NCBI GenBank assembly: GCA_010093605.1
Contig: MU004192.1
Coordinates: forward strand, 2,563-66,562
Length of the DNA stretch: 64,000 nucleotides
Reading direction: 5' to 3'
DNA from: Lophium mytilinum
Taxonomy: Eukaryota
Numbering within the stretch: the first letter of the stretch is position 1; each line of letters starts with the position of its first letter. The notes beneath the pieces are model-generated. The model was given only the letters and a program-made list of their open reading frames with translations, made no database searches and was not told where the DNA came from. Of this stretch, positions 49,370-59,679 are shown in pieces. Both the position numbers and the translations under genes were made by a program.

Positions 49370-50338
49370 TCAGACTCTATAACTCTCCCTCGCCCAAGTC
49401 TCAACACCCGTAACCTCCATCCCCAACTTCCTGTTAACCGTCCCCTCCTCCCCCCAACTAACCCCCTTGCCCTCGGCAAACACAACCCGGTACTTCCCCA
49501 TCACACTCTCTGGCTCCATTGCTAGTTCCCCCTTCAAAAACCCTACACTCCACACCTCCCTCTTCACCCCCGTCCCCAGCACCCTCTTCACCACCTCGGC
49601 AAGCTCCCCATAGCTAATCGTCTGCCCAGCCACATACAGCACCCCCCTCCCCACCTCCACCTCAGCCCCCAAAACCAACCGCGCAGCAACCCTTCCAATA
49701 TCCCCCACCGTCGTCACCGTAACCCTATTCTCCCAGCTCCCCAGCGCTCTGACAACAACCTCCTTCCCCCCCTTTCCCCCTTCTCTATCTCCACTTTCAA
49801 CAGCTTCCACAACCCCAAACGCCCCCTCAAACAAAAAACTCATAAAAATCCCCGTACTCACCACCGTCCACTCGACTCCTGCTTCGCTTGCTTCAGCCCG
49901 CAACAACCCCCTCACAGCCGCCTGCTCCCCAAACAGCGGCATCAAGCCCCCCGCGTCCCCGGTCACATCGTAATCCACGCCCCACTGCCACGGGAAGAAC
50001 CGTAACTCTACCTCGCCCCTCTCCTTTCGTAAGCGGCCGGCGGCGAGCGCGGCGCGGGCGAGGAGCAGCTGCGAGCCGGGTGGGAGGCCGAAGCCGTTTG
50101 CGCAGATGACGACGGGGAAGTTGGAGAAGTGGGTGGCGAGAGTGGAGGGGTCGGTGGCGAGGAGGTCGAGAGGGAGGAAGCGGATCCCGTGGGGGGTGAG
50201 GGCGGTGTATTTGGATGGGTCGCGGACCGCGAGGGTGAGATGTGAAGGGGTGGAGAGGGAGGGGAGGAGGGCGTGGAGGATGGCGGTTCCGAGTTCGCCG
50301 GCGCCGAGAAGGAGGATGGAGGGGGTGGTGGACGACAT
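49370..50338 (-). CDS. NmrA/isoflavone-reductase-like protein
   Basis: ILLLGAGELG, RFFPWQWGVDYD, WTVVSTGIFMSFL. Confidence 0.9.
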   Translation of the reverse strand: MSSTTPSILLLGAGELGTAILHALLPSLSTPSHLTLAVRDPSKYTALTPHGIRFLPLDLLATDPSTLATHFSNFPVVICANGFGLPPGSQLLLARAALAAGRLRKERGEVELRFFPWQWGVDYDVTGDAGGLMPLFGEQAAVRGLLRAEASEAGVEWTVVSTGIFMSFLFEGAFGVVEAVESGDREGGKGGKEVVVRALGSWENRVTVTTVGDIGRVAARLVLGAEVEVGRGVLYVAGQTISYGELAEVVKRVLGTGVKREVWSVGFLKGELAMEPESVMGKYRVVFAEGKGVSWGEEGTVNRKLGMEVTGVETWARESYRV

Positions 50339-51007
50339 GGTTGTGTGGAGGGCTTTGGAGAGGAGAGAAGCGGTTACAAGGGTTTGCAAGATAAGTGAGA
50401 GAGGAGATCGTGGTGTAGGGGTGATTTGCAGGAATCAGAGCGGGACTGACGGCGGTTCTTATAGCTTGAATCGTAGCGTTGCTCTGGACGATCTTATATC
50501 ATACCATTGTAGAGCGGTGGGGATAGTAGTTTTAGCGGCTCGGATTTAAGCGTTCTTAACGTCGTTAGTCGTTTACGGGCGTCGATATATTATTCAGCAT
50601 GACTGTTGCGAGTGAGGTTGATGGCCAAAGGTCTGTCTCTGTGGCGGATAAGCCACGAGCTCAATTGGTTTAATAGTTTGAATGCTACCTACAAATGCCC
50701 TTCTGCAGATGCCTTCCTTCCTCAAGTCCTTATCCTACATAAACGCCTTGAAACTCCTTTTGATGGTATATAGCAACTTGGAGAGAACCGTCGCTTAATA
50801 GGAGTGGCAGAACCATTGATACAAGGCATTCAGAGTGGGAAGGCTACCGTCGGATCCTGAGTTTCGGAGGAGCTTGTCGACTGAAAGTTGAAAATACGAT
50901 CAAGATGATCTGTTATTACGAGAGCCGGAGTGAAGACCTTAGACTGGAATGTCCGAAGATATTTTGTTGTCTGTCATCGGCGATCCCTTCAATGTTTATT
51001 GCGGCTC

Positions 51008-51925
51008 TCACTGTCCTCCATGTGGCGGTCCACCCATTCCAGGTGGCGGGAATCCTCCCGGGGGCGGTCCACCTTGGAACATCATGTGTGGAGGAGGCAT
51101 TCCCGGCATGGGCCCTCCCGGCATTCCACCTGGTGGTGGGAACGGCATGCCGCCTGGAGGCGAACCGGCGTTTGGAGGAGGAGGGAAGGGAGGGAAACCC
51201 ATCGGCGGACCCCCTCCCATGTGCGGCGGTGGGAAGGGCATGTTCGGTGGCATACCAGGCATACCACGATTCGGTCCAGCTAGCATTAAAAAATGTTGTT
51301 AGCCTGGGCACGTCAAATGACGGGGTGAACAAAAATACAGTAGAACTCACGTCCACCTTGACCCGGGCCACCCATAAAGGGCGGCGGGGGCAACCCTGGC
51401 ATGCCTGCGACAGAGAGTTAGCAACTTCCTCTAGTAACCAAATATTTTCGGGGTAGATTTTACCCCCAGGGAAACCAAACGGCGGTGGGGGACCCCCAAA
51501 TCCACCAGGTCCAGGTCCTCCCATGTGTTGTGATTGCAGCATCGGATTCTGGTTCTGCTGGCCCGCGTCCGCGTACGATGAGGTGATGGAGTCGATAACA
51601 CTCTGCGCTTTCTCGTGGCCAATTTCTGTTTTGTCCATGAGCTTTCGTCCACGCTAATATCCAGTCTCAGGTAGACGTACGCTGGTAGTAGTCGACTACA
51701 TTTCGCAAGTGGTTTCGTCCACTGTTATGCGCTTTTCGAACGCTCATCGAGTCGTGCGTGAGGTAAACATCGCAGTAATCGCCTTGGGTACTACTGTCAG
51801 CCTGGTATTCTTGCAGTGCGCGTTCGAGATGAAGTCGTAATTTTCGGGAGAGACCTACAGAAGAGTGCGGAGGATGTCAGTTACGTTGCGCATAGCTTTG
51901 GAGGGTTACACTTATATTTCGGCAT
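51008..51925 (-). CDS. YHC1: U1 snRNP protein C; exons 51916-51925, 51859-51864, 51681-51782, 51464-51625, 51351-51404, 51008-51279
   Basis: Matrin-type finger [25 protein letters not shown], then [18 protein letters not shown] and a Pro/Gly/Met-rich tail. The first intron is non-canonical in this model. Confidence 0.93.
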
Positions 51926-52530
51926 CTTAGAGAGATTGTCAAGAGGGTAGTATCTACGTGAGGGTCGAAGCTGATCGTGGAGAAGTTGCGGGTGATAGTA
52001 CGTGATGCGATCGCGGCGCGGCCGCCGAAGTTGTCAATTCACGACTGCTTAGTCATCAAATATTACAGCGTATTGAATTTGGCTGAGTGGGATATATTCA
52101 TTGCTTTCACTTTAGTTCGCCACACTCCTAAATAGCATGATTACATTCCTCTAAATCCAACTTCTGAGTCTAAAGGCTTGCAAAATTCATCTCATCACTC
52201 AAAGTCTCAAAACTTGAAGGAATCATTACATCCCGAGTCTATTAGACAATCGGAAATCTCTAATTAAATAAACTATACAGGATGTGTTACAAAACAAGGA
52301 AACGCTTGAGTGGATGCCGCTTTTCGACAGGAAGAGAAGGAAATTAGGGTCCCAGCAGGGGTCTAAGCAAACAGATCCTGCGCCAGGCTGCCTTATCCAT
52401 AGAAGACAAAGGAAAGACGGCCTATGCAGTCAAAAAATCCATCTATCCCAGCATAATAACATACCAACCGCTCGCTCCCAAATCCTATACACAATTAAAA
52501 AGGCCGTATCGACCATCACTGCGTTCCATT

Positions 52531-55500
52531 CTACTGATCCGCTTTGTGCGACGGAGCCCTCTGCGACTCCCTCGTCTTCTGCCTGCTGAAGCTCTGGGTG
52601 CGTTGCCTTATCATGCTACCTCTTGATTTGACAGGCTCTAGGGTTGGGTCGGGCGCAGCTTCTGTCTCTTCCTTCTTCACTCTTGGCACACGGAGAAGCC
52701 AGTAGAAAGCTAAAGCCGCAAAGATATTGAAGATGATGTACGCCCACATGATGCCAAAGTTGCGCCAGGCTTGATCCCAGTAGCTGACCACGCTCGCCAG
52801 GAAGACGTTGGTGTCTGCAATCTGGCAGTAGCTGCAGTCGGAGGTGGCGTTGGGATTTTGGAGCTTGCCACCATTGAGGCCAATGTAGGTTTCCATGAAT
52901 GACCAACATTGTCCAGAGGTAGGTTGGAACTTGAGGAATTCATTCGAAGCGCATACGACCTCTGTATTGGCGACGGCAGTGGAGAGCATGCCTGATATGA
53001 GGTAGGTGAATGGGGACACGCGATACATGAAAATCCAGAAGCCAGGGAGGCGTGACGGGCTTGCGAGGACACTGTGGATTGTTAGCTACAAGTGCAGAGA
53101 GAAGGGGAGAAGGGAACCATACCCGCAGAAGATGAGGGTGAACGAAAAGACCATGTTGGCAATATTTCCTCCTGCTTCTGCAGTCTCGACACCGGCGATA
53201 CACATGTGTGTAAACGTGCTGGTAAAGAGGAGGAAAGTAAGGATGAACAGGAACATGAGGGCTCCGCGCTCGTGGACCGCGTCCGTAGGCTCGGCGTTCC
53301 GATAGAGACCGATGGGATAGTACCAGCAGAAGAAAATAATGAGGGCCATAAGAGAGTTCCACGGCAGCTCGACGATGATGTTGGACAACATGAACGCCTT
53401 CCAAGAGTAGGCCTTGGACGGCCTCTCCCGAACTTCGTAGAGCGCACGTTGTGTGACGAAGTGTGGCATGATCTGTTGTACCAAGTTGCCGAAAATTGTC
53501 ATCAACATGAAGATGGAGAACATTTGGTTCTGGAGACCTTGAATACTGTTGCGAGCCTTGAAGAACGAAAAGCCAATGAACAAGGAAGAGAAAAGGCACA
53601 GAGCACCTTTCGCGTAGATGTAGGAAGGCGTGCGCCAGTACTGCTGGAAGACACGGATCGTGACCTCCTTCATCTGTTGGTCGAATGGTGCGGCAAACTC
53701 GCGGTAAGCGGCCTTGTCCTCCTTCCTCTTCCTGGAAGCAGCAGAAGCGGTGCGCTGGAGAGCCGTCGCAGCAGGTCGTTCTTCTTTGAGTGTAGCTAAT
53801 TCCTCATGGACCTCTTCGATTTCCGGGCTGTTGCGCCAAACATCGGGCCAATCAATCTCGGTCTGGGACCCTGGGGCAGCGCCAATGACTTCGAGCATCC
53901 ACTCGGCGGGGTTGGCTTCGGGGGGACAGGGGTGGGCACCGTTCCTCTCGAAATAGTTGCTCAGAGTCTTAGAGTTTTCGCCGATTTCGCCAAAGTAGAC
54001 AGTCTTTCCGCCTTTGGCAAGGAATAGGAGTCGGTCGAATCGCTGGAACAACATAGCAGATGGCTGATGGATGGTGCAAAGAATAGCTTGTCCGTTCTTG
54101 GTCAGCTTGTCTAGAAGATCCAGAATAGCCCAGGAAGTCTGACTGTCCAAGCCGGATGTTGGCTCGTCGAGGAAAAGAAGGAGGGCGGGCTTGGCAGCCA
54201 ATTCGACACCAATCGTCAATCGCTTGCGCTGTTCGACGTTGAGACCTTCACCAGGAACACCGACAACCGCATCAGCATAGTCTTGCATTTCCAAAAGCTT
54301 GATGACCTCCTCTACGTAGTCCAATTTTTCTTGGCGGGGAACATGAGCAGGCTGGCGAAGCAGAGCGCTGAAGTTAAGAGCCTCCCGAACCGTGGACGTG
54401 GAAAGATGCAGATCCTGTTGCTGGACATAGCCGGTCTTACGTTGGAACGAGGCGTCGCGTGGGAGGCCGTCCACCAGCATTTCACCACTGATGACACCCA
54501 TAGTAGTACGGGTAGCAAGACAATCCAAGAGAGTGGTTTTACCGGCGCCGGACACACCCATCAAAGCGGTAAGAGTACCTGGCTTCACCCAACCGTCGAC
54601 ATGGTCCAGAATCCTACGAGGCTGACCCTTGATCTTGATATCGTAGCATACGTTCTTCCACTGGAAGATGGCGGTTTGGCGTTCGATGATGGCGGTGTGA
54701 TCCTCGGTGTTGCTCGCAACGACAGCACGACTAGGATCAGCGGACTCGGCATCGCCGCCCTTTTGGTCAAGGAACTTATGGCCGCGGCGGAAGACGAGGA
54801 CTTCGCCCTTGGATTTCTTTGCTGTGATGTATTCGGTTGCGGCAAGATAAGTGATCATGAGACCAATCATGAAAACGAATAGAATGCCGAGATTCCTCCA
54901 CTTGTGGGCGTGGTAGTATCCAAAGGCGCTGTTGATGTAATCGTCTCCATTCACAGTGGCTGAACCAGGAGTCGATCCCACCTGGGAGCAGATTTGATTG
55001 GCGAGAGTAATCTTTTCATATCCCTTGCCCATAGGCACAAAAGCGGAACACTTGTAGTTCTGACCATGAAACTCGTTGATCATAAGAGACTCAAATCCGT
55101 AAGCAACAGGGTCCAGATAATTGATCCACCGTGACCAGCCAAGCATGTATCTTGTTGGAATAGTGAAGCCAGTGTAGATGACCAGGGCCAAGATTAAGAC
55201 GGCTGCAGGAGCCATGGCTTGAGATAGAGTCCTTGAAACAGAGGCGATCGTCCGGAACAGCATAGACATGACCAAGGTGAGTACGAACGAGATGAGGATG
55301 AAGAAGAAGAAGGGTCCTGGTTCTCTGCGAAGGTTTGTCATGAAGTAGATAGCCAAGTTGAAAGTACAGGCGTTCAGAATCTTGTATGGCATGTCCGTAA
55401 GCATAGAAGCGAAAGCCTCGCAAGACGGGTGGTAGAGGGCATATCGGGAATGTTTCTCGACAATAGGACGCTGTGCATAGAGGGTGAGAATCTCCAGAGC

Positions 55501-57330
55501 ACTACCAAACGCGTTCATTAGGATGGCAAAGAAGAGGAGGGCGCCCCGTGAGTAGAAGCTATTAGTATCGTGTGGCAGGTTGTAAAACACACTCCCGATG
55601 ATCAAGGCGAAGATGAAGTTGCCGAACAACATGGTCAAGGTCAAACTTGGATCGCCCTTGAGTCTCTGAAGGCCTCGCCACAGGCAGAGACGGACCTGTT
55701 GTCCATATGATAGGGTATATGGAGATGTGACACGCTGTCTCTTGGCCTGTGTAGCTTGGCGCGACCTCTTGAATTGCTCGAAGCTCTCGCCTCCAATTGG
55801 GTATTGCTCGTCGTAGCGATCGATGGCCTGGAGGAGCTCCTGTCGGTGCTGGCTATCCTTCCATCGCTGCGCGTACTCGTCGGGAGTCCTCGGAACACGA
55901 GCCTCCCAGCCAGGCTGAACAACACGCTCTAGCGGGCTGGTCATGGAGGTCAGGAAATCAGCAGTGGTTTGTCGATCCGGGCAGATGAATCCCATGTCAG
56001 TGAAGTACTTTTTCGCTTCTCCAGTGCGGCCGAAGAAGATCTGGCGTCCCTCGTAAAGCACAAGCACTTTGTCGAAATGATCGTAGGCCAACTGAGGAGC
56101 CTGGTAAATGGCAACGCAAGCCGTGGCGCCTTGGATGTCCGTCGACATGCGCAGGGTCTTACAGAACTCGATGGCGTTGGCACTGTCCAGACCGCGGGTA
56201 CTGTTGTCCCAGCATTGCAATGGGGCACCGCTAAGGGAGGCCTCAGCGATACTGACACGCTTGCGCTCTCCACCACTGACACCGCGGATGTAATCGTTTC
56301 CTACGCGTGTGTTTATGGTGTGGGAGATGCCAAAGATGGCCATGATGACATCTCGCATGTGTTCGGCAAAGGTGTATTTGTCGACTCCGCCGGGAATGTG
56401 GCGGGGGGCTCTAGCCCGCGCGGCGAAGGTGAGGGTGTCCCCAACGGTAAGCATAGGGAAATGGACATCGACTTCTGCGGTGTAGATGGCCTCTCCACGG
56501 AAGTCGTGGTTCATGTGTTTGGCGCTGATACCTGCAGAAGGAGACACAGGTTAGCTTGCGGTATTGCTGAGAGCACTGGAAAACTCACCTTGATAGTTAA
56601 GGTAGGAGCTCGGTTCCACGACGAAGCCATGAGTCTCGCCAGCAACCGTCTTGAGGAAAGTAGAACATCCAGATCCAGGCGGGCCCAAAACGACAAGCAT
56701 CTCCCCGCTCTCGACCAAGCCATCCAGATTTTGGAGAATGTCGATCTTCCGCTGCTTAGACTTTCCGAGGAGGCTGTTGACGAGGCCAACTCCTTCTAGC
56801 AGCACATTGCCCACGCTCTTTTGGTAGTCGGTGGCAGAGCCGAATCCATGGACGTTGAGGTTCTTGAAAGACACGCCGGCAGTTCTCATGGGGGCTGCCT
56901 TCTCGTCGGATTTGTGGAGATTGAGCATGGCCGTTGCCCAGGCTCTCGCGCTGAAGTGTTCGCCGGCGGGATCAAGGGGTCCATTGGGCTCTGGTTCGAA
57001 GGGGCTCTGTCCAGCGGCGGTCGTGGAGAAGTTTGAGGCCTGGGTCAGTCGGCGGGCCAATTGGTGGACGTGGGCCTCCCGCCGCTCATCCTCAGAGTCG
57101 TCCCCGGCACTGCTGGACGCCCTCTTCTCTCCCTTCTCGTCAATTTGGCCTACGCCGTCGCGGGACACTGGCTCTGGCTTCTCGGGCGATAGAGTGGAGG
57201 AGTCGGAGTTGACGTCGGGGCCAGACTCGGAGCGCTCTCTAGTTGCGGAATGGGTGACCTCGTTGGTTGCAGCGTGGTGCTGCTCCTCCTTGTCATTGCT
57301 GCCAAAGGCAAAGTTGCCGACGAGCGACAT
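52531..57330 (-). CDS. Full-size ABCG/PDR-type multidrug ABC transporter; introns 56532-56588 and 53072-53122
   Basis: NBD1 GPPGSGCST and [24 protein letters not shown]2 GVSGAGKTT and [15 protein letters not shown]; two TM domains. Confidence 0.97.
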
Positions 57331-59679
57331 GATGGGAAAAAGTGGATGGCGTTGCGGCCAGAGAGGGACGAGAATGGAAACAACACTCCACCAACAAACA
57401 GGGCTGACCAGAAATAAAAGGGTTCGGGGAGAGTAGGGTGGGAAAAGTACATATAGTTTCCGTACCTACGTAGGGAGCGCTAGCCAAGGCAATTGCTTGG
57501 ATTGCAAGGCATAGAAGCACACCGAAGGCGACCAGGATGTTGTGAATGTTCCGGATGCTGTGCTGGGAGTGCTCCGGCAACGCTGAGTTGGGACTGGTTT
57601 GCGAATCACGTTGGTTCACGCTGGCCCTGTATCGGTCCTGCGCTGGTCCTTCGCTGCTGACATGGGCCTGCCACAGCTGCCATGGGGGGAAGTCGCTGGT
57701 GGGCTGCTCGGGTAGCGGGCGTCGCTGCCTTCCGGCACGCCGCGCTAGGCTGCAAGAGGGCACTGCCAAGGCACGTCTCACGAGAGCAGTTAGCGCGAGG
57801 GGGCGTTTTACAGCGGCCGCTTGCTTGTCGCGTGCAGGTCTGCCGCCGTTCGGGAAGCCATCGCATCCGCTGCTGTGGGGCCTTGAAAAAAGGGTCCATA
57901 TATCGCCCTCCCCCACCGCGGACCGGCATCTTCTGCACAAAGGGCTGCGATAACCACGGACGAACACCGCACTGAATGCTGGCCGAATTGCTGCCAACTC
58001 TGGCCAAGCTGCAGGCCGAAAAGGAGGCCTCGCGGCTCACAGCCTCAACTCTCCACTGCACCCCCGCGGACAAACACCTGTATTCACCATTGGAGCCCTG
58101 CGCAACGCCGCTCGCCATGCCGCCCTACTCCTCCGGTTGTATACGCCGAGACAGGTCGTGTCTTGGCCGCAATGCTCGTGTCAACCTCCCTTCAGCACTT
58201 GCAAGGTAGCCTCGTTTGTCCCGGACGGGCACGAGTTTTCCGACCGCCCCCTCCAAGGACACGAAGACGGGACCATGCAGCCTATCACGCTTCTCAGCCA
58301 CTGACGACGCCTTCGCCATCGGGACATCTCATTTGCCATCGTGACAACTGCCATTTCCAGCTTCTCGAAGCGGCATGGTTGGTCACCACACCCTATTGAT
58401 GTAACCCTCAGCTGTCGTCCGTATTTCTCTGCGGAACACTGTGCCCGCACGCCCGTAACAACTGAAGCAGTCAGGCGGACCCGCTTAAACACCACACCCC
58501 GCTTCCACCTGAAATCCTCCTCCAACTAACGCCGCCATCGGGGACTCGGGTTCTCGGGTCATCTCAACATCAACATCATGTCTCCAATGCTCGGCATCTC
58601 GCCAAGGATCAATGAGCAGCAGGTGAGCAGCGGGTCAGGCCGCCCAGATGCGCCCGTGGATCGTCGAGCCGGTAAGCCCGTCAGCACTTACTGCAGTTCT
58701 TCAACACCCCACCTCTCATGAAGATGCGGCAGCCGACCCGGCCTAGGCAGTGAGCTGAGGGGCAACCACAGACCGCAGGTTCGCTGGGCGCCTGAAAAGC
58801 TGTAGGGCTGCAAGCCGCCACCGGCATGTTGGCGATCCGGCTCCTCGCGATGAAACCTCGATGCCAAGACATAACCGACGCTTTTCTTCAAGAGTACCAA
58901 GTAGAGGAAGGATCAGGTACCTATGCATTGAAATAGTCAGCTCACTCCACTCGTTTTTCCACCCACGAGGCGAGACAGATGTAAGTCCATTGAGGCACGA
59001 ATGTGAGTCTGAGGATCAATGTCAAAGTCAATAAACCGTATTTAGTAGACCATTCTCCACAATAATAAATGCGCTCACCGTCCCAATAAACACCACTATT
59101 CTTGATCGTGATATCCCGTTCGCTTTAGAAATAGACTCAACCTCAGGCCCGATGCAACTGCTGATCAAGATTACAGGTTTCCGATTACGTTTGAGGTGGC
59201 CCTTTGCATTGGCCTCGCCACGTACATACGTCGAAATCACGCCTCTTCTGCCAGTTGAGAATACTAACCTCCAAGTCTCGAGACATGGCTCGTCCGGTTC
59301 GCGCTCCGGCTTTTGCCCCCTTATCCCCGCTCCTCCCAGTCACAATCGCCGCTGTGAATTGGAAGCGTCGGCCCTGTGAGAATGATACCTGTGTTAATGA
59401 TACTCGCCACATATCTCCATCCCTGTCTCAGGACCGCCACAGCCCAAGTTGTCCAAAACCCGACCGCCCGACCCCCGCGTTCGGCTTCTGGAAACCTGGT
59501 CGCAGCTTTTGTTTCTTGCTTTAACATCATGCGAGCTGCCACACTTTCTAAAGTGTTTGTTCTGAGGTGCACTGCAGCTTGGTTGCACGGAATTGGTTCT
59601 TTACAGGTTCAACATTTGCACTGCATACTCCTACAACAACCTGACTACATCGTACCCTAGTAGCTACTACGATAGATAT

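Follow-up and report, generated by a model that had tools for sequence, protein, structure and literature searches.

The U1-C gene and its spliced junctions

The minus strand of the window (the whole stretch of DNA that was analysed, 64,000 nucleotides) carries a gene for U1-C (Yhc1), which we modelled with six exons and five introns (Table 1). Every intron except the first, intron A, has GT-AG ends. The spliced coding sequence is 606 nt long and forms one open frame of 201 amino acids that starts MPKFFCDYCDVY. The frame of exon 3 matched PF06220 (zf-U1) with 61.2 bits against a cut-off of 22 (E 7.8e-17, profile positions 7-38 of 38), and the original prediction of a U1-C gene at this place was thereby borne out; the coordinates and letters that it had given for intron A, the micro-exon and intron B also proved correct when the sequence was re-read. 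On the same strand, at 53086-57465, lies a gene for a PDR-type ABC transporter; over 501 residues it shares 96% identity with AbcA of Mytilinidion resinicola, which places the window in or near the Mytilinidiales, and hence in a Dothideomycete.

Table 1. Features of the U1-C gene in the window. X3 and X4 are public sequencing runs whose contigs were compared with the window.
Feature	Positions	Strand	Description	Evidence
exon 1	51916..51945	minus	at least 20 nt of 5' UTR plus ATGCCGAAAT	X3 contig starts at 51945, 0 mismatches
intron A	51865..51915	minus	51 nt, AT-AC, ATAAGT...CCGCAC	absent from spliced contig X3
intron A donor, ATAAGT	51915-51910	minus		sequence
rival GT donor, GTAACC	51904..51909	minus		sequence; used by 0 contigs examined
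intron A branch-site motif, ACTGAC	51881-51876	minus	presumed branch A at 51877, 12 nt from 3' end	
micro-exon, TCTTCT	51859..51864	minus	6 nt	the six letters at the 51782/51916 joint of X3
intron B	51783..51858	minus	76 nt, GT-AG, GTAGGT...CTGAC...CCCAAG	absent from X3
exon 3	51681..51782	minus	zf-U1 zinc finger, D7 to Q39	PF06220; X3 and X4 contigs match
intron C	51626..51680	minus	55 nt, GT-AG	joint 51625/51681 in X3 and one X4 contig
exon 4	51464..51625	minus		X3 piece 51463-51625, last G fits both sides of the joint; frame
intron D	51405..51463	minus	59 nt, GT-AG	X3 loose end at 51463 equals exon 5 start
exon 5	51351..51404	minus		open frame; start seen as X3 loose end
intron E	51280..51350	minus	71 nt, GT-AG, GTGAGT...TGCTAG	predicted only, outside the compared stretch
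exon 6	51008..51279	minus	Pro/Gly-rich tail and stop codon	open frame

The coding part of exon 1, ATGCCGAAAT, occupies 51925-51916 of the minus strand, with the start codon ATG at 51925-51923 as read from the sequence, and ends in phase 1, inside codon 4. The micro-exon finishes codon 4 (F), supplies codon 5 (F) and gives the first base of codon 6 (C), the Cys that corresponds to the first zinc ligand in the U1-C structure. Exon 3 opens with GCGATTACTGC at 51782, and translation of its frame onward from 51780 gives 33 residues. Since the PF06220 match begins at profile position 7, exon 1 and the micro-exon must supply the six residues with which the domain begins. The spliced product, MPKFFCDYC, completes the N-terminal C-x2-C ... 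H-x5-H finger, both His being in exon 3 and the ligand positions being those of the human protein. The first Cys of the finger thus depends on the last base of the micro-exon.

Ten public runs with matching sequence were found, none of them recorded as RNA, and four (X1, X3, X4 and X5) were compared with the window over 51440-52060. The contig of run X1 (depth 176) had 0 different letters and 0 gaps over this stretch; X1 is probably the source sample of the window, that is, a separate assembly that is not independent of its reads. Because the two assemblies are identical, the A at 51915 and the C at 51865, the two bases on which the original prediction hinged, are not an assembly slip.

A spliced contig of run X3 (1911 nt, depth 1038) matched the window in three pieces, 51945-51916, 51782-51681 and 51625-51463, with 0 mismatches over 30+102+163 letters. 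It joins 51916 to 51782 through six letters, the complement of TCTTCT, so that its product is MPKFFCDYC, as had been expected from the removal of both introns; intron C (51680-51626) and intron D are missing from it as well. TCTTCT occurs only once within 51783-51915 and the joint cannot be slid (positional ambiguity 0), and the ends of intron A are therefore genuinely AT and AC. Given that four introns are missing from X3 precisely at their borders, and that it begins 20 nt upstream of the ATG, it represents a transcript and not genomic DNA. We conclude that the AT-AC junctions of intron A are used in vivo, on the evidence of one contig whose exon-1 side measures 30 letters, or 36 together with the micro-exon; its run carries a different organism code (B) from that of the DNA source (A) and an RNA label that is the tool's guess, and the intron letters are those of the window. 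In run X4, two spliced contigs from relatives have the codons for MPKFFC immediately ahead of exon 3. Run X5 gave no contig matching 51440-52060.

The original prediction had also allowed for a second isoform, spliced from the GT that lies 6 nt into intron A. The GTAACC donor is indeed present and its product, MPKYKCDYC, is in frame, as is MPKCDYC, the product of skipping the micro-exon; but the GTAACC junction was found in 0 contigs of X1, X3 and X4 over 51440-52060, where contigs drop rare variants, so that minor isoforms, splicing efficiency and the order of intron removal are not visible in X3 and X4.

Intron A in related loci and named fungi

Metagenome contigs were scanned with an alignment of 17 database U1-C proteins. 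This gave 377 stretches, 251 of which encode a relative; the best 80 were kept, and 79 of them were parsed from the start codon to exon 3, with L029, which is cut at a contig end, left out. No N-terminal intron was present at 36 of the 79 loci, some of which are cDNA-like (e.g., L020 and L021, as compared with the genomic L033). Introns A and B flanked a 6-nt exon at 19 loci with AT-AC ends of intron A and at 13 loci with GT-AG ends. Intron A stood alone with GT-AG ends at eight loci, with GC-AG ends at one (L039) and with AT-AC ends at one (L036), and intron B stood alone at L052. When the window was counted together with the 42 loci (among the best 80 of 251) that have intron A, its ends were AT-AC in 21 cases, GT-AG in 21 and GC-AG in one. 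Mixed ends were found in 0 of these 43, AT being always paired with AC, which answers the comparison of orthologs that the original prediction had proposed.

The 21 AT-AC cases represent 14 distinct intron sequences of 49-53 nt, and, since nine AT-AC loci are near-identical copies of one lineage, they amount to about ten lineages. The counts of intron A ends are not independent events, and a single ancient switch may explain them. The interiors of the introns are unalignable between lineages, and what is kept is ATA[AG]GT, CT[AG]A[CT] and [CT]AC/TCTT[CT]T. The AT and AC letters are invariant in 20 of 20 related AT-type loci (among the best 80), and a GT directly follows ATAAGT in only three of the 14 distinct AT-AC introns.

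Several features of the neighbouring sequences were recorded along with the ends. With the 6-nt exon present, intron A measured 49-53 nt in its AT-AC form and 50-56 nt in its GT-AG form; standing alone with GT-AG or GC-AG ends, it measured 62-117 nt. The GC-AG form reads GCACGT...TTTAG and lies at L039:1103-1200, in a single-intron locus. The donor of intron B was GTAG(G/A), with G at +4, in 13 of 13 distinct two-intron AT-AC forms (51858-51853 in the window), which puts a TAG 10 nt past the AC acceptor; in the GT-AG forms it was GTAAG, GTGAG or GTACG. The read-through proteins P0005 and P0085 suggest a GTAT donor of intron B in some AT-AC lineages. At L052:13-86, exon 1 is fused to the micro-exon, intron C is absent and a 56-nt intron B is kept. 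This locus is 83-85% identical overall to the AT-AC genomic locus L041, with a homologous intron B, and its resemblance to a partly spliced transcript hints that the AT-AC intron could be removed before intron B. Among the 37 intron-poor loci, none of the cDNA-like contigs reached 88% identity to an AT-AC genomic locus. Assignment of the metagenome loci to classes by their U1-C was rejected, as the scores are dominated by the Pro/Gly-rich tail.

Named taxa were reached through a protein search with the stop-to-stop frame of the window, in which 120 of 424 matches were listed, PF06220 being present in all 120. Gene models that read through the introns were used as signatures of the underlying DNA: MPKYK stands for AAAT followed by ATAAG; H/Y-S-S-V-G for an A-pyrimidine acceptor followed by TCTTCT and GTAGG; and MPKCK, together with VFC directly before DYC, for a GT donor and an AG acceptor. 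Among the 120 listed of 424, the AT-type donor signature was found in 11 proteins, with an A-pyrimidine acceptor in nine of them and AG in none (amino-acid signatures fix the last base of intron A only as a pyrimidine), and the GT-type donor signature was found in nine, with AG in seven and AC in none. Both AT-AC signatures were detected in Lambiella insularis (Lecanoromycetes) and in Aureobasidium sp. and Rhizodiscina lignyota (Dothideomycetes), the donor signature in Saccharata proteae and Penicillium rubens, and the acceptor signature in Penicillium sp. IBT 31633x and Polytolypa hystricis (Eurotiomycetes). Judged by these read-through gene models, the AT-AC form appears to occur in Dothideomycetes, Eurotiomycetes and Lecanoromycetes. 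The intron had been presented in the original prediction as an oddity at the level of the species, and on this point it has to be corrected: the metagenome loci and the named taxa reveal a clade-wide, conserved state. For Fusarium, Metarhizium, Epichloe and Lachnellula, models that begin MPKFFCK point to the presence of intron B alone. Locus L006 has the two-intron layout with GT-AG ends of intron A, and its Erv25 neighbour is 94-96% identical to Helotiales proteins, which makes L006 Leotiomycete-like.

The same search bears on annotation. MPKFFC stands directly before DYC in only 27 of the 120 listed U1-C proteins (of 424). Many of the listed models start inside intron A or B, read through, or skip the micro-exon, as do the Hymenoscyphus and Pseudogymnoascus entries, in which MPKC precedes DYC. 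In models that begin within an intron or run on through it, the first zinc ligand is lost. Mis-annotation of the U1-C N-terminus is widespread, and the AT-AC intron with its micro-exon explains the error.

Class, proposed mechanism and persistence of the AT-AC intron

The donor of intron A, ATAAGT, is the major-class consensus except for A in place of G at +1, and the intron in the window contains neither an ATATCC donor nor a CCTTRAY branch site. CTRAY is the fungal branch-site consensus. Among the 14 distinct AT-AC introns (best-80 loci and window), the donor was ATAAGT in 13 and ATAGGT in one, and a CTRAY motif was located 10-12 nt from the 3' end in all 14. The ATATCC donor and the CCTTRAY branch site were found in 0 of 14, and the U12-type combination of a /ATATCC(TT) donor with a TCCTTAAC-like branch site 10-15 nt from the 3' end was likewise found in none. 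This motif reading, in the window and the 14 distinct introns, agrees with the major-class donor and branch point, and the lack of U12 signals, that the original prediction had described.

The literature is in line with this reading. U2-type AT-AC introns have already been described as known, with a method for their identification (PMC1557818), and /ATAAGT is their stated consensus (PMC5029451). Two pieces of background on which the original prediction relied are borne out: U12 splicing is reported to be missing in Pezizomycotina, in a statement made for the group (PMC2846911), and compensation between first and last base is documented by an engineered AT-AC intron that is spliced in yeast (PMC5029451, citing Parker and Siliciano 1993). 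It is very likely that intron A is a U2-type ('type II') AT-AC intron, constitutively removed, in the U1-C gene of a Dothideomycete.

The sequence itself, the junctions of the spliced contig, the U2-like motifs at donor and branch site and the strict co-variation of the terminal bases in relatives are established here, and from them a route for the removal of intron A can be proposed. From established splicing biochemistry, U1 and U6 would read AUAAGU as a normal donor apart from position +1, and branching would occur at the A of CUGAC, which lies 12 nt from the 3' end. A(+1) and C(-1) would then, at the second step, stand in for the usual non-Watson-Crick G(+1)/G(-1) pair; with such a pairing, the first compatible YAC past the branch would be chosen and an AG would not be needed. 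Introns A and B are both short enough for intron definition, so that an exon of 6 nt would be tolerated, and splicing of exon 1, the micro-exon and exon 3 together restores the conserved N-terminus of the zinc finger. Single reversions, to GT-AC or to AT-AG, would impair the splicing of an essential gene. The AT-AC pair probably persists through this mutational lock-in, which is an argument and not a measurement, and a special regulatory role need not be assumed.

Other readings of the intron and of its persistence were weighed against this one. AT-AC ends are mostly U12-type in animals and plants (PMC7072748), which speaks for removal by the minor spliceosome; but the absence of ATATCC and CCTTRAY from all 14 distinct introns, every one of which has the U2-like donor and CTRAY, together with the reported loss of U12 splicing in Pezizomycotina (PMC2846911), leaves this reading close to refuted, with hardly any probability. 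It is also highly improbable that the main product is made through ordinary GT-AG ends, as MPKYKCDYC or MPKCDYC, with the AT-AC junction being rare or coming from a strain with other intron letters. Both of these products are in frame, gene models of this kind exist elsewhere (MPKC directly before DYC in the two Leotiomycete entries) and the RNA contig comes from organism code B, but the sole assembled transcript form, at depth 1038, contains the micro-exon, and MPKFFC is found directly before DYC in the mRNAs of relatives and in the 27 proteins counted above. Moreover, the invariance of AT and AC in 20 of 20 AT-type loci makes a GT-AG allele in a near-identical strain unlikely. Two further routes were considered and rejected. 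In a nested-intron (stwintron-like) route, the AAAT/TCTTCT junction would still require cuts after AAAT and before TCTTCT, at the AT and AC letters; and for recursive splicing at TAG/GT after the micro-exon, the GT is absent after TAG in eight of the 13 distinct two-intron AT-AC forms.

The intron belongs to the gene of a factor that aids 5' splice-site recognition, its AT-AC state is kept across three fungal classes, and in human cells U1C controls U1-70K through alternative splicing (PMC3798272). These points speak for an autoregulatory sensor, in which the weakened donor would make the output of U1-C mRNA depend on how much U1-C there is or how active it is, perhaps alongside a second isoform made through the nearby GT. 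The present data support neither the sensor nor the second isoform, and we regard such a sensor as quite unlikely: the contigs, from which rare forms drop out, contain no alternative or unproductive junction; a GT follows ATAAGT in just three of the 14 distinct introns; more U1-C would give better splicing, which is a positive and not a homeostatic feedback; and the conservation is equally expected from lock-in of the compensated pair. Leotiomycete-like relatives have the same two-intron layout with plain GT-AG ends, so the layout does not need AT-AC. Quite unlikely, too, is a combination in which the pair would be kept in the three classes as a working sensor plus lock-in, removal of the intron being exceptionally sensitive to how active the U1 snRNP (U1-C) is or to the fidelity of the second step; if this were true, the cell would tune U1-C output through its own splicing capacity. 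Our preference remains with persistence by lock-in of a U2-type AT-AC intron. Both end states are available in related lineages and some carriers (Penicillium, Aureobasidium) are easy to manipulate, which makes the lock-in and sensor ideas directly testable.

Known systems, novelty and local gene order

The closest counterparts are the vertebrate U2-type AT-AC introns of SCN4A and SCN5A (PMC1557818), which, like intron A, are of the major class in all but their AT and AC ends and whose borders are likewise conserved over a long evolutionary distance. The /ATAAGT donor, too, is common to intron A and to the stated U2-type AT-AC consensus (PMC5029451). Unlike SCN4A and SCN5A, intron A of U1-C is fungal, ~50 nt long, part of a core spliceosome gene and immediately followed by a 6-nt exon. 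The vertebrate introns were shown to depend on the major snRNAs (PMC1557818), and the same would be expected of intron A. That paper describes two human U2-type AT-AC cases as experimentally shown and some xylanase genes of filamentous fungi as hypothesised cases (PMC1557818); the latter AT-AC II introns would be of the same kind and from the same broad fungal group as intron A, in a different gene.

Yeast provides a host without a minor spliceosome that removes AT-AC introns, the engineered one and that of RPL30 (PMC5029451), and first and last bases compensate there as in U1-C. The nested AT-AC intron of RPL30 concerns 1-2% of transcripts and has a donor unlike /ATAAGT (PMC5029451), whereas removal of intron A gives the sole assembled form, is needed for the reading frame and proceeds from a consensus donor. 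With U12-type AT-AC introns, intron A shares only the terminal dinucleotides, their donor and branch motifs being absent from it. The control of U1-70K by human U1C (PMC3798272) likewise ties the expression of a U1 snRNP protein to a splicing decision; it involves a regulated alternative exon, whereas no alternative form of fungal U1-C was seen in the contigs. Micro-exons (<=30 nt; PMC11648925, PMC11121469) are likewise very short internal exons needed for function, and that of U1-C, at 6 nt, seems to be constitutive, has a short intron on either side and is conserved from class to class. Functional micro-exons were stated to be previously undescribed in filamentous fungi (PMC11121469).

In a full-text literature search, which did not cover subscription journals and supplements, no paper on an AT-AC intron or a micro-exon in fungal U1-C was found, and Frey and Pucker (PMC7072748) treat AT-AC introns of fungi only in bulk, as rare. 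The U2-type AT-AC intron is thus a known kind; what appear to be new are a member in the gene of a 5' splice-site factor, the 6-nt exon next to it and the conservation over three classes. Compensation between first and last base, demonstrated originally on engineered yeast introns, is found here in a natural intron that has lasted for long. Its carriers are fungi with the major spliceosome only, and AT-AC and GT-AG ends are both found at the same intron position in related lineages. The few micro-exons under discussion in filamentous fungi are joined by a constitutive one of 6 nt whose conservation spans classes.

The surroundings of the gene were also compared. A fragment of an Erv25/p24 gene lies just upstream of U1-C in 21 of 22 loci with GT-AG or GC-AG ends and in 0 of 20 AT-AC loci; the sole GT-AG/GC-AG locus without it is L002, whose flank is just 342 nt. 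No such fragment was found upstream of U1-C in the window (52000-53086). The AT-AC and the GT-AG/GC-AG states go with different local gene orders, which fits one old split. Downstream of U1-C, the window contains a 354-codon open frame on the minus strand (49370-50434). Relatives of this frame (55-64% identity) were located downstream of U1-C in the AT-AC loci L011, L014, L016 and L026, apparently on the other strand, and the X3 transcript contig, with its 1911 nt, is long enough to extend into this downstream gene.
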